64,000 nucleotides of DNA, taken from positions 16,926,001-16,990,000 of the forward strand of contig OZ360230.1 in the NCBI GenBank assembly GCA_977017645.1. Reading direction: 5' to 3'. Every line of letters starts with the position of its first letter. Position 1 is the first letter of the stretch. The notes under the pieces were generated by a model. The model made no database searches. It saw only the letters and a program-made list of their open reading frames with translations, and was not told the DNA's origin. Positions 10,461-63,222 of this stretch are shown piece by piece. A program made the position numbers and the translations under genes. The DNA comes from Torpedo marmorata. Lineage: Eukaryota.

Positions 10461-11952
10461 GTAAAAACACACCAAAATGCTGGAGGAACACAGCATTTTC
10501 AGTGTCTTTTCAGTGTCTGTAGGAGACAAAGATATATTGCCGACGATTCGGGCCTGAGCCCTTCTTCAAGGAATAAGCAGAATAAGACAGAAACAGGAAA
10601 TCTCAGAAAGTCTCAGAATACAGACAATGCTGGCTGGGGGAGGAATCCAGACCAACAATAGGTGTTAATTGGATATGATAAAGGACGAGGTAACAATTTA
10701 TCATGTTTGTGCGAAAGGAGACGGAATGGAGATACAGAGATAGGGAAAGGCGATGGGGGAATAAGGTGGGGGGGGGGTGGTTTTAACGAAAGCCAGAGAA
10801 GTCAATATTAATGCTATCTGGTTGGAGGATGCCCAGTTGGAAGGTGAGGTGTTGTTCCTCCAATTTGCAGGTGGTCTCAGTCTGGCAGTGCATGAGACCA
10901 TGGACAGACATGTCAGCAAAGGAATGTGATGGAGAATTGAAATAGGTGGCCACTGGGAGATCCACACTATTGCAGCGGACAGAGCCAAGGTGCTCAACAA
11001 AGCGATCTCCCAGTCTGCGTCCAATCTCTCCGATGTAGAGGAGACCACAACGGGAACACCGGATGCAGGAGATGACCCCTGCAGATTCACAAGTGAAATG
11101 TTTCTTCACGTGGACTGTTTGGGGCCCCGAATGGTGGTGAGGGAGGAGGTGTGGCCGCAAGTGGAGCATCTCCTGCGGTCACAGGGGTAGGTCCCAAGGA
11201 GACGATTGGTGGGGAGGGAGGAGTGGACAAGGGAGTCACAGAGGGAGTGGACCCTGCAGAAGGCGGAGAGGGGAATATGTGTCTAGTGGTGGGATCACAT
11301 AGTAGGTGGCGGAAATGACGGAGGAGGATGTGTTGGATGGGGAGGCTGGTGGGGTGGTAGGTGAGGACAAGAGGAATCCTGTCCTTGTTGCGCATGGGGG
11401 CAGATGTGCGGGTAATGGAGGGTATGCGGGTGAGCACCAAGTTGATTGAAGAAGGAGGACATCTCTTGATGATCTGGCATGGAAGTCCTCATCCTGGGTG
11501 CAGATGCGACAGAGATGGAGGAATTGAGAGAATGGAATGGAATCCTTACAGGGGACAGGGTGGGAAGAAGAGTAGTCGAGGTAGTTGTGGGAGTTGGTGG
11601 CTTTCATTAAAACAACCCCCCACCCCCCCCCTCCTTCTTCCCCCATTGCCTTTCCCTATCTCTGTTTCTCCATTCCGTCTTCTTTCGCACAAACATGATA
11701 AATTCTTACCTCGTCCTTTATCATATCCAATTAACACCTTTTGTTGGTCTGGATTCCTCCCCCAGCCAGCATTGTCTGTATTCTGAGACTTTCTGAGATT
11801 TCCTGCTTCTGGCTTATACTGCTTATTCCTTGAAGAAGAGCTCAGGCCGAAAAGTCGGCAATATATCTTTGTCTCCTATAGACACTGAAAAGACCAGCAT
11901 TTCGGTGTGTTTTTACTACAATCACAGCGTCTGCAGACTTTCGTGTTTCACT
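10461..11952 (-). mobile_element. Penelope-like element: RT thumb and GIY-YIG remnant between inverted pseudo-LTRs
   Basis: ORF 10783-11169 FTCESAGVISCIRCSRCGLLYIGEIGRRLGDRFVEH (GIY-YIG with CCHH); YLDYSSSHP...KDSIPFSQF in ORF 11236-11646; arms 10461-10796 and 11599-11916 are reverse complements; TSD gaagtcac(a/t)gca at 10449-10460 and 11953-11964. Confidence 0.92.
10537..10573 (-). ncRNA. Minimal type I hammerhead-like motif (U3 core; stem III mutated)
   Basis: Minus strand reads TTCC-TTGAAGA-A-GGGC-TCAG-GCCC-GAA-TCGT-C-GGCAA. Confidence 0.6.
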
Positions 11953-12517
11953 GAAGTCACTGCAAACAACTTGGGAAGATTTGGAGCAGGAACTTTTTGG
12001 GACATGTAGGAATAGGAGTTCTCCTATGTTTCTCAAACTGTTTTAAGAGCTACATTCTGCAGCCACTCTGCAGCTGTTACCACTGGGCATCATATGCTTC
12101 ATCACATTTTTATGTGAAAGCGGCTGTCATCGTCTTACCTGATTTGCACATCGAAATACCTTCCAGGCAACGTTAGATTTGCTTGCTGGGGGTCCATTTA
12201 TAGGGGAATTGAATACAACTGGAGTTTATCATTGGGATTGCCAAAATATCCATTCAGTTTTCCTTTGATAATCTCCTATTTTGCCACTGTTGACTGAGAT
12301 TGAACTCAGATTCTTTTCCTGGATGGGATTTATACTCGCACCCTGACGTCTGATATATAGTCGAGATGAAATCTGGCAAAGGATACACTCATTTGTAGCT
12401 TTCTGCCTAAATGACCGGTTCCTCACTCGGCATAGCCATTTATTTTCTGTTGCATTGAGCATGATATTAAGGTGTTAAAAATACAAGAGGCTGAACAGAG
12501 CTTTTTATTCTGACCAG

Positions 12518-12667
12518 GGTGGAAAAATCCCAATCAGATGGACAGCCCCTGAAGCAATCGCTTATCGCAAATTCACCTCAGCCAGTGATGCGTGGAGTTA
12601 TGGTATCGTCATGTGGGAAGTCATGTCCTATGGCGAGAGACCTTACTGGGACATGTCCAACCAAGAT
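12518..12667 (+). CDS. EPHB3: EphB3 coding exon, kinase subdomains VIII-X
   Basis: accag acceptor, gtaagt donor; [50 protein letters not shown]; not in the ORF track. Confidence 0.96.
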
Positions 12668-12789
12668 GTAAGTATTTGAGCTGACAAGCAGGTAAACATA
12701 TTCTGTGACAAATTCACTTAGAATATTAGATGAAAATTGTTACATGTTTGAATATAAAAAAAATACTGCAGTTGCTGTACTTCTGAAAT

Positions 12790-12925
12790 GGAACAGAAAA
12801 TGCTGGAAACACTCTGCAAGTCAAGGGAAGCAGTCAACATTTCCGGATGGAGTCCCTTCATCAGTTTGGTTTATCTTTCAAGGATGCTGCTCGACCTGCT
12901 GAACTTTCAAGCATTTTCTGTTTTT
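12790..12925 (-). mobile_element. Older Penelope-type mini-element with a canonical CTGATGA hammerhead-like core at 12832-12867
   Basis: Imperfect inverted ends aacagaaaatgctggaa / ttcaagcattttctgtt; minus strand reads CTGATGA-A-GGGA-CTCCA-TCCG-GAA-ATGT-T. Confidence 0.6.
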
Positions 12926-60446: not shown

Positions 60447-61944
60447 CAAACAAAGAAGGGTGTCGGTCCTTAAATGTATGTTCCCAAGGCAGCACAAAAC
60501 ACCAACACACAGGTTGGCTATCATGGAGGAGAGAAAGACTTCAGGGGAGAAGGAGGAAGCTCCCAGATTTACACAAGGTCATCGCAGTGCACAAAGGTGA
60601 GAAAAATATCCTGGACAATGGACCAATGCAGAAAAAAATCATGATCATGTGAGATAGGGTAAGTTTGACAACATGGTAAATATCAGACATAATTATACTT
60701 ACATACTCACACTTGCACCAACAGTTCGCTGCATATAGTTTGACTCCATCCTCTCCCATACAATGCTCATCCCAACCCCACCACTGACATTCAGCCTGAG
60801 CCAGATTTCAAGGGTCCAAAGGTATAATAAGGAAACAATCACTTCCATTTCCTCCTTGTCATGGCTACTTGGGTCACAGAAATGTAAATGACCTTGTAAG
60901 CAGAAGCAGTATGAAATCTGGCACGAGAGAACTGTTGGTTAACAGTGCAACTTTGTACTGCACATTTATGACCCCATTGTGTGAAAGAACAGAACACATT
61001 GGAGGTGATATCCATGCATGGGACTTGCTTCATTACTGTATGTCCAGGCAGAGCTACGTTACACTGAGCTGAGGGGACAGGTGATCTTCATATCTGGCCC
61101 CCCAGCCTAATGCCAGCCAACATCTGCCGTATCCAATGCAATCACACAAATGTGATCATAACTGATGGAAAGCGAAGTGGTTTGATTTTCTCATTGTATT
61201 AATCAATAATAATGTTTAAATTGTTTAATAATTTTTAATTATTGGAATTTACATCAGCTGTTTTTAAATGTTAGAAAGAGTTGAAAAACCAGAAGGTGTC
61301 ACCAGGCCATGTGGGACTCAGGAACCATCAACTGAGCTCTTGCTGCTGCAGACAGGCCATTCGCTTCCTGGGATGGTTGCAGCTGTAACGCCTGACACTC
61401 AGTTGGATCTTGCAGGACTGTGGAAGGATAATTTAAGAATACGGATTATACAGGACCAAACATGAGGCACATGCAGTGCCAAATACAATTGAGCCCTGTG
61501 TTTCATTGTGATTACAACATAGCCTTTGAATTGATCTATGGTAAATGTCTCCATTCCTATATGTTAAACATGAAAGAGTTTTTGGAGCACCTTATAAGGG
61601 ATACTACCTTGTTTTGCCTTTGCCAGATGTGAGGAAAGGTTTCCTGTTTTCTCTTTCACTTGAACAGCATGAATTAGAGAAGGAGCATGAAACATGGGGC
61701 AGAAAGAGATGACGATGATGATCACTGTGTGTAATTGTGCGTGAAACCTCTCAGAACCATTTCAGAGACTTTGAGAGATGAGCAAAATTCCCTGCACTCT
61801 GTACCAAGCCTGGTGCATATCCCCATGACACACACTTTTCAAACACATCTCTTCTCAGAGTTCAGGTCTTTGAGCCTGCTGCACAACTGTTGTTATGCAG
61901 AGTTTTGAACTTAAGTTATGCTATCATGGACAAGTGAATCAATA

Positions 61945-62540
61945 GGCCCTTTTATAATGCAAAAAAAGCGATTGTAAAGACAGAACATTTCTGTCTTTAA
62001 GTCGCTTCACTTACCCCCATAAAAGGTCCGATGGCGGATTGGCCAGTCAAACTCCGATCCGCCTAGAGGGGTACACACAGAGGTGAAGTGAATCGCTACA
62101 CCTCCTCCATAAAACGAAAGCCGCTGAAAGCGGCTGCAAAGGGGAGGGCTGATGACGTCGCGATGACACCGTCAGCCCGCGACCCAGGAGTGCAAATTTA
62201 AAAAAAGCTGTAGAGCTAATTACACTGCGCAGGAGATCTGCCTGAGTCCTATGACTGCCTGCACAGATCTCCACCAGCGCTCTTACCTGCTCTTCGGTCG
62301 CCATTTTCGGGTATAGGCCACTTTCCCTTTTCGGCGCATAAGTTTGACGTCATGGTGGTGGACGGCGCTACTGCACCACTCGCCCCGCCTCCCTCTGATC
62401 GGGAAGCCGGCTCCCGACGCAGCTCAGCATAAAGACAACGCTGGAAACGCCATATAGGTCGTCACCATAAAAAGTAATTTCACCTTTTTATTTTTTTCCT
62501 TGAGCCGGCTTTAATGCGGGATTGCGCCATAAAAAGGTGA
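61945..62540. mobile_element. Putative non-autonomous DNA transposon (Harbinger-like MITE)
   Basis: CpG-rich block; imperfect inverted ends ccctttttataatgcaa / ttgcgccataaaaaggt; internal repeats of ccataaaa. Confidence 0.5.
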
Positions 62541-63128
62541 TATTGTTAGATGTACAGCTGATCAGAGGAAAAGATCAGGCATGCTAAATTGGATCTGGAC
62601 CACAAGAGCCCAATCCAATTTCACAATTGGTGAATGTTCATCTGGAAATAATTATTAAGGTAATTTACTCAGAGTTAAATCGGTTGTGGATTGCTTGGTA
62701 CTTAAAGAAAAATCAGAATCGCACAATTCAATTTTTAAGATAAATTATCCAAATGTGGCAGACATTGTTTAAGCTGGCTGGTTAATGCAATCATGAAAAT
62801 GAATTTGAAGTTAAATTGTTTGGTTTAATAAAATGGTGGGATTATGCAGGATAAATTCTCTCACTATTTTAGAGCATGAATAGAAATCTATTAATCAGCA
62901 GAAGATATCACAAACTTTGACATTATCCTTCACCGTGAAGATCAGCTACTACCAGTCTTTTAACTGGGAGATTCTTTGCTGAAATGAGTTATGACTGCAT
63001 CAGCAAGTTGTTCATAGTGAATGTTGAAAATTGGATGCAGGATCAGTTTGGATATTTATTGAAAATCCTTCAAACTGGAGTAGTCCGTAACAATGGGGCT
63101 TAGTAAATATTCATGAAATATGAGTGAA

Positions 63129-63222
63129 ATACCTTGAAGAAGGGCTCAGGCCTGAAATATTGGTTATATATCTTTACCTCCTAAATAAGATGAGTGCATG
63201 ACGTGCATTTTTGTGTTTTTAT
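63129..63222 (+). mobile_element. Penelope terminal-repeat fragment with hammerhead-like motif 63129-63167
   Basis: ATACC-TTGAAGA-A-GGGC-TCAG-GCCT-GAA-ATAT-T-GGTTAT. Confidence 0.7.

Follow-up and report, generated by a model that had tools for sequence, protein, structure and literature searches.

The stretch analysed here, referred to throughout as the window, covers 64,000 nucleotides (nt) of the 6.2 Gb genome of Torpedo marmorata (contig OZ360230.1, positions 16,926,001 to 16,990,000 of the forward strand). It includes introns of an Eph-type receptor gene, recognized by its fn3 and tyrosine-kinase exons, and these introns hold repeats that we take to be like those of sharks and rays. Among them are copies of a Penelope-like element (PLE), a retrotransposon whose terminal repeat (pLTR) carries a minimal type I hammerhead motif. 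The original prediction, made from the letters of the window, held that eight copies carry U instead of C at position 3 of the hammerhead core (U3 versus C3), facing G8, and that two older copies read CTGATG. All ten agree with it in coordinates, strand and core letters: TTGANGA stands at the hammerhead core of eight out of eight sites, and the two older copies read CTGATG. The anatomy proposed for the motif also holds, with stems I and II, GAAA, a palindromic stem III, an NUH triplet and an extra base after A9. With up to 4 mismatches allowed, a 27-nt pattern has 7 matches in the window and none in any of 100 shuffles, and an Rfam scan of the window at E values up to 10 returned no hammerhead family. 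No RNA record was listed as carrying the stretch, a negative without bearing on expression. A weak TTGAAGA look-alike at 6500-6526 (minus strand) was excluded, as it gave no profile match.

The eight sites do not share the single consensus proposed for them. The window copies are decayed and derive from several subfamilies, none of the eight being assigned to the youngest one, and the 28-nt block is intact only in the copy at 18109, which is 5'-truncated and fused to an inverted piece of pLTR. The copies at 10537 and 11826 have the stem I strands TTATTCC (5') and GGCAAT (3') in place of ATACC and GGTTAT. These two hammerheads sit at either end of a single inverted insertion, whose arms are 95% complementary, so that the eight sites represent 7 independent events.

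In the element, the hammerhead lies about 290 nt past the stop codon of a frame encoding a reverse transcriptase (RT) and a GIY-YIG endonuclease (EN), and 176-179 nt before the start codon of the next open reading frame (ORF). A partial frame of 404 amino acids (aa) matches the Pfam families GIY-YIG (E 5e-4) and RVT_1 (E 0.018), both under the curated cut-offs, and the YIDD and YIG motifs are visible in the protein frame. The cysteines of the RT-EN linker, read by eye as CX4CxxC, suggest membership of the Neptune or Nematis clade, which is marked by a CX2-5CxxC zinc finger in this linker (PMC8557442; this and the other papers are cited from portions of their text). Exact matches to the ORF start number 15, and 5 of them have a hammerhead upstream. 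Tandems of pLTR, ORF and pLTR were found at loci L166-L170, together with back-to-back inverted 5'-truncated copies. In the tandem elements holding both pLTRs, which lie 3.7-4.0 kb apart, both hammerheads are U3 in 5 of 5 cases; a C3 partner was sought in these five and none was found, so that a dimer would form without rescue by a C3 partner. One tandem element has pLTRs 99.2% alike and a stop-free frame of 1,063 aa, its middle apparently out of frame. Penelope-like elements may end in an optional tail of 30-40 nt, and the 3' ends seen here form two clusters, about +77 and +114 relative to the cleavage site. About 35 nt past that site, an almost invariant 22-nt block (GACC...CAGCA; window 47665-47690) recurs across the subfamilies; it looks capable of folding into a hairpin immediately ahead of the first 3'-end cluster and is a candidate start signal for reverse transcription. 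Other arrangements of the element include short tandem units of 218 nt (L078, ORF start +39 and +257) and 46 nt (L066:4665-4711), each with a U3 hammerhead, which resemble retrozyme arrays and could form dimers, and internal deletions that join the first 100-250 nt of the ORF directly to the pLTR (L073, L075, L077).

Genome-wide, a single pattern returned 90,490 U3 and 1,396 C3 matches, with 0 for reversed controls; these counts are lower bounds, since copies altered elsewhere are missed. U3 stands opposite G8 in about 98% of the pattern matches. Subfamilies were defined on 273 copies from 984 kb of unselected DNA and targeted loci, of which 237 were assigned and 36 with low scores dropped, and the ten groups, separated by their 3' flank, were represented by 144-column consensuses. 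Median non-CpG divergence is 26% in O, 10% in E2, 9% in E, 6% in D, 4% in C, 4.5% in B and 1.1% in A; the values for F (9%) and G (8%) are biased low because these copies were mostly picked by exact pattern. In unselected DNA, copies of A, B, C, D, E, E2 and G_U3 carry U3 in 48 of 50 cases and C3 in 0 of 50, G_U3 being defined by the absence of C at position 3. Family F has C3 in 24 of 25 GACTGCC rows and family G is mixed, with 13 C versus 36 U (both counted by eye among the first 100 of 558 matches listed). Every subfamily below about 8% divergence has inherited U3. When U3 and C3 are counted by subfamily age, U3 is thus fixed in the younger subfamilies and C3 belongs to older families, as originally predicted, and the elements with U3 continued transposing, as the youngest family (A) is only about 1% diverged and has 78,569 matches. 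Contigs of four other organisms also carry the family. In this four-organism comparison, position 3 is absent from the best 40 of 116 differences, among which its neighbours 2.1 and N7 are present. The dominant form in the organism labelled relative C has N7=C (41%) and H17=U (58%).

The change at position 3 had been attributed to a C-to-U substitution, and the lengths of the copies point elsewhere. Measured from a fixed anchor to U4, 10 of the 12 C3 copies in family G span 9 nt, and the span is 10 nt in 10 of 11 G_U3, 4 of 5 E2 and 7 of 9 D copies (21 of 25). The C3 and U3 forms are one base apart in length, which makes U3 an inserted U, and the sequences indicate that the insertion slid the old C3 into stem I. 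Nearest-neighbour predictions trace the accompanying change in pairing. In family F, stem I with C3 free is predicted at -6.6 kcal/mol. In the C3 form of family G (G_C3) the 3' strand is now GGUU, and the register that takes C3 into stem I is favoured (-1.4 vs +1.6 kcal/mol), while in all U3 consensuses stem I with position 3 free is predicted at -1.1 to -3.1 kcal/mol. The old C3 is accordingly predicted to close stem I with G1.1, leaving U3 to face G8; this ancestral C is retained in 6 of 7 U3 subfamilies and has changed to U in the youngest and largest. A tree of 26 copies built from endonuclease DNA and pLTR (26 of 85 usable copies, with A and B limited to 5 and no G_C3 row) sets F apart from all U3 groups (96/96); G_U3 comes next, followed by D with E2 and by C, B and A, one E2 row falling within A. 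A single origin of U3 is the simplest reading. A tree of the ten 144-column consensuses is unresolved.

After the insertion, the motif changed unevenly. Across the seven U3 consensuses, none of 21 columns (U3, 12 of the core and 8 paired) has changed, and 3 of 7 free columns account for 5 changes (two at N7, one in loop II and two at H17; Fisher p 0.011 for 0/21 versus 3/7 columns); the topology behind these counts agrees with the 26-copy tree. U4, G5, A6, G8, A9, G12, A13, A14, A15.1 and U16.1 are unchanged throughout, and H17 is restricted to C or U. The flanks show 0.89 changes per column, a value inflated by small families. The G10.1-C11.1 pair is present in all seven consensuses and is G·U in about 15-18% of the youngest family, in one sub-lineage. 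Among 37 copies picked for closeness to the consensus, 89.5% of cells are paired. The covariation anticipated for the stems does not occur in stem II, where the U3 families differ by wobbles only, and is found in stem I instead: 3 of 6 pairs change on both sides, in 16 cells against 6.5 in shuffles, and 0 of 500 shuffles score as high, with the proviso that kinship among sequences can exceed shuffles without structure.

Within family A, one sub-lineage links N7A, C11.1U (G·U kept) and G1.1A, by which the closing pair goes from U·G to U-A. G1.1A occurs in 8,625 of the 78,569 matches versus 2,938 for G12A, and among 105 copies C11.1U occurs 16 times versus 3 for G12A; C11.1U is present in 51 of the first 100 G1.1A rows listed. 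No compensated U3-A8 subfamily has been amplified according to the genome pattern counts (G8A 1,614 vs 1,051 for the G5A control), and about one quarter of the G8A rows reflect CpG decay of the N7=C families; G8A stands at the mutation background. Judged from the sequences, amplified changes are confined to free positions or keep pairs, and the unpaired catalytic bases are constant.

Table: Hammerhead copies, element remnants and receptor exons in the window
Feature	Position	Strand	Remarks
Minimal hammerhead with U3, subfamily B, intact 28-nt block	18109..18144	-	U3 at 18142; predicted cleavage after 18115
U3 hammerhead, subfamily C	47593..47631	+	U3 at 47598; pLTR runs on to ~47701
U3 hammerhead, subfamily C, C11.1U	55881..55918	+	U3 at 55885
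U3 hammerhead, subfamily B, C15.2U	60309..60347	+	U3 at 60314; pLTR ~60030 to 60437
U3 hammerhead, subfamily D, A15.1U	10537..10573	-	U3 at 10569; 3' end of truncated element
U3 hammerhead, subfamily D, stem II deletion	11826..11861	+	U3 at 11830; opposite end of the 10537 inverted insertion
Broken RT-thumb/GIY-YIG frame remnant	10879..11613	-	Upstream of the 10537 hammerhead; tblastn, 65-76% identity to protein of a young copy
U3 hammerhead, older U3 type (N7=C), decayed	15143..15180	+	U3 at 15148
Broken GIY-YIG remnant	14418..14799	+	Upstream of the 15143 hammerhead; tblastn
U3 hammerhead, subfamily E2, palindrome lost	63129..63167	+	U3 at 63134
Old C3 hammerhead remnant	12832..12867	-	
Old C3 hammerhead remnant, old group, ~26% diverged	27252..27285	-	
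Eph-type receptor tyrosine kinase exons	711-1118, 5414-5755, 7138-7479, 17479-17847	+	fn3 and kinase Pfam matches

The window also holds other repeats. A 5S rRNA-like match at 35930-36048 (plus strand; 48.6 bits, above the gathering threshold) adjoins an RT fragment and is possibly the head of a 5S-derived short interspersed element or a pseudogene. A near-complete long interspersed element (LINE) at 38738-43700 (plus strand) contains an ORF1-like frame and an endonuclease-RT ORF2 and is interrupted by stops; its 3' part is found again at 9354-10342. Long, perfect-looking hairpins at 51046-51364 and 28897-29000 arise from head-to-head repeat ends, with microRNA-family matches below threshold.

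By anatomy and evolution the motif is a PLE minimal hammerhead in which positions 3 and 8 do not form the canonical Watson-Crick pair. Because the core pair is mismatched and the remaining motif is intact, the motif is likely to be a very slow ribozyme, and we put at about one in two the probability that it is a strongly attenuated hammerhead assisted by dimerization or by protein. The element would be transcribed through its tandem pLTRs, and two motifs would then pair stems I and III across copies, joined through their ACGU palindromes; alternatively, the protein encoded by the element would help the RNA to fold. Only with such assistance could the U3·G8 wobble let an occasional RNA be cut after GUC or GUU. 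The bulk of the RNA would stay intact and serve as template for reverse transcription, in which case slowness may be beneficial. The more ambitious proposal, that the insertion was compensatory and produced an active U3·G8 hammerhead held slow by selection, switched on by dimer or protein, and driving the whole recent Penelope radiation here and in at least four relatives, is possible but less likely than not.

Several observations weigh against an attenuated but working ribozyme. There is no clear pile-up of insertion 5' ends at the predicted cleavage site: an estimated 154 or so copies start there (16 of 30 loci x 289) and some 87 start at a control position four bases further on (7 of 30 loci x 372), which amounts to less than about 0.5% of the family and at most a twofold excess, and the 5' ends of 65 young matches are scattered. 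The double hammerhead is predicted to lie 0.5-5.7 kcal/mol above two monomers in the older U3 families, 1.1 in family F and 14.3 in G_C3. In the youngest family, A, which adds a U·G closing pair, it lies 9.9 kcal/mol above them. The G_C3 forerunner was amplified with its C3 predicted to be trapped in stem I, which suggests that a working core was not needed at that time. The excess of G1.1A belongs to one lineage and not to many events, and the G10.1·U11.1 wobble of this sub-lineage is a change of core class that weakens a conserved pair and falls outside the Fisher count. In relative C, G16.2A, which would break the palindrome, reaches 14% of contig depth versus 1.4% for C15.2U. The other pLTR block, of 22 nt, shows almost the same degree of conservation (2 changes), so conservation alone is not specific to the hammerhead. 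In published work, a complete mutational scan of a type III ribozyme found every single mutant in the CUGA region, the U3·G8 change included, to be poorly active (Roberts 2023, PMC9901934), and hammerhead mutants of the Anolis Poseidon element (PAc) leave insertion in vitro unaffected (PMC11167929). Folding in 185-nt context does not discriminate, since the probability of the stem I closing pair is low (0.00-0.07) in every family, the C3 family F included; one E2 copy reaches 0.25. A monomer rod pairing G5-G8 with C15.2-H17, the predicted minimum free energy fold in several families, was rejected as a selected structure because families D, E, E2 and F have N7=A, which disrupts it. An upstream ATG within the motif was likewise rejected as a constraint; it exists only when N7=U and opens a frame of 17 codons.

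These observations leave room for the main rival, a dead core that is kept as an RNA scaffold, for protein binding, translation or reverse transcription, with cleavage dispensable, an explanation that is possible and that we hold only tentatively. It would account for the stepwise weakening seen as stem I collapse in G_C3, U3·G8, U2.1·G1.1 and G10.1·U11.1, for the lack of an amplified revertant or compensated subfamily and for the missing pile-up of 5' ends. It is also in line with Naiads that thrive without a hammerhead (Craig 2021, PMC8557442) and with the hammerhead-independent insertion of PAc in vitro (PMC11167929). Yet G5, A6, G8, A9, G12, A13 and A14 are constant over seven subfamilies in which N7, loop II and H17 vary, and a mere scaffold need not follow this catalytic-fold pattern, with H17 only C or U. 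Conservation at the level of DNA, with the block acting as a target of the endonuclease or an internal promoter, is unlikely, and so is chance retention in a small number of master lineages; in both cases the hammerhead look would be a leftover. Few independent lineages exist (seven consensuses, some from 6-11 copies), the second pLTR block is similarly conserved and PLE pLTRs contain promoters (PMC6765202), but two-sided changes in stem I and the repair of the closing pair from wobble to Watson-Crick argue for RNA pairing.

Other arrangements of the core fare worse. It was originally suggested that the extra A after the core might signal re-registration, U3 pairing with the A after G8 to give U3-A8, a two-base position 7 and a new core geometry. 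This A is invariant in all U3 consensuses and hammerheads with a U3-A8 pair are known to work (PMC3088659, PMC4209133), but the same A lies ordinarily between A9 and G10.1 in C3 families too, as a general trait of minimal hammerheads, the G that would be freed remains unchanged, and a natural variant with an insertion after A6 had low activity (PMC3088659), all of which makes this register improbable. A C3 that still pairs with G8, the inserted U being bulged from the core, is more improbable again. Retention of the ancestral C in 6 of 7 U3 subfamilies and the insertions near C3 in saltern hammerheads (PMC3088659) would suit it, but stem I would then be no stronger than in G_C3 (+1.6 kcal/mol), and the youngest, largest family has turned this C into U.

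The PLE hammerhead is conserved almost everywhere, yet it cleaves poorly and proved dispensable in the one in vitro system. The genome provides a dated natural series of cores (a good C3, a trapped C3, U3, and U3 with further wobbles), all of which have transposed, so that cleavage rate can be compared directly with transposition success. An element amplified to more than 90,000 copies with a mismatched core is in this sense a natural test of the need for RNA cutting. If U3·G8 cleaves, genome scans with CUGANGA descriptors would pass over whole families amounting to more than 90,000 copies. Should cleavage be absent, a second, non-catalytic role of the motif would still be preserving the core. 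Scale, insertion-and-slip origin and the dated series of progressively weaker cores together make PLE hammerhead function directly testable.

Cervera and De la Peña (2014) described the minimal PLE hammerhead, with an extra base after A9 and low dimer activity (PMC4209133). The motif studied here resembles these metazoan PLE hammerheads in being of type I and present in both pLTRs, with a short stem I, a G10.1-C11.1 pair, an extra base between 9 and 10.1, a palindromic 15.2-16.2 and occurrence mostly as solo truncated copies. It differs from their consensus CUGANGAH in that U3 faces G8. One U3·G8 row, Saccoglossus 1 (acorn worm), UUGAAGAA, stands in Fig. S3 of that work without comment in the consulted text, and the searched supplement file contains no shark or ray row. 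The literature search returned no paper on a U3·G8 PLE family; the largest variant survey, Lünse 2017, was outside its coverage and may list such sequences. A 2026 retrozyme preprint used canonical and minimal descriptors. Covariant U3-A8 hammerheads occur in the Schistosoma Cercyon PLEs (PMC4209133) and in bacteria (PMC3088659); they share U at position 3 with the present family and restore a Watson-Crick pair with A8, whereas here G8 stays. Frangieh (2024) reported a PLE hammerhead, that of PAc, which is protein-assisted and dispensable for insertion in vitro (PMC11167929). PAc is likewise a vertebrate PLE hammerhead in which neither reads nor insertions end at the cleavage site, but its core pair is C3-G8, it extends over the start codon and protein aids its cleavage, while the ORF considered here starts about 177 nt downstream and encodes Neptune-type linker cysteines.

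A parallel for the insertion comes from Perreault (2011) and Naghdi (2020), who described natural U3-A8 forms and slow saltern variants with insertions by C3 (PMC3088659, PMC7151607). One of these variants combines U3 and G8 with an insertion, written U2a-G2b-U3...G8 (PMC7151607, PMC3088659), the slow cleavage having been measured for the C3 form (PMC3088659). The likeness lies in the insertion at the junction of stem I and core and, in that one variant, in U3 with G8. The hammerhead family is known, and U3·G8 is thinly precedented by one acorn-worm row and one saltern variant. The saltern variants are prokaryotic or viral, rare and monomeric and carry a two-base insertion, whereas here a single inserted base was absorbed by a slip of register and spread in more than 90,000 retrotransposon copies.

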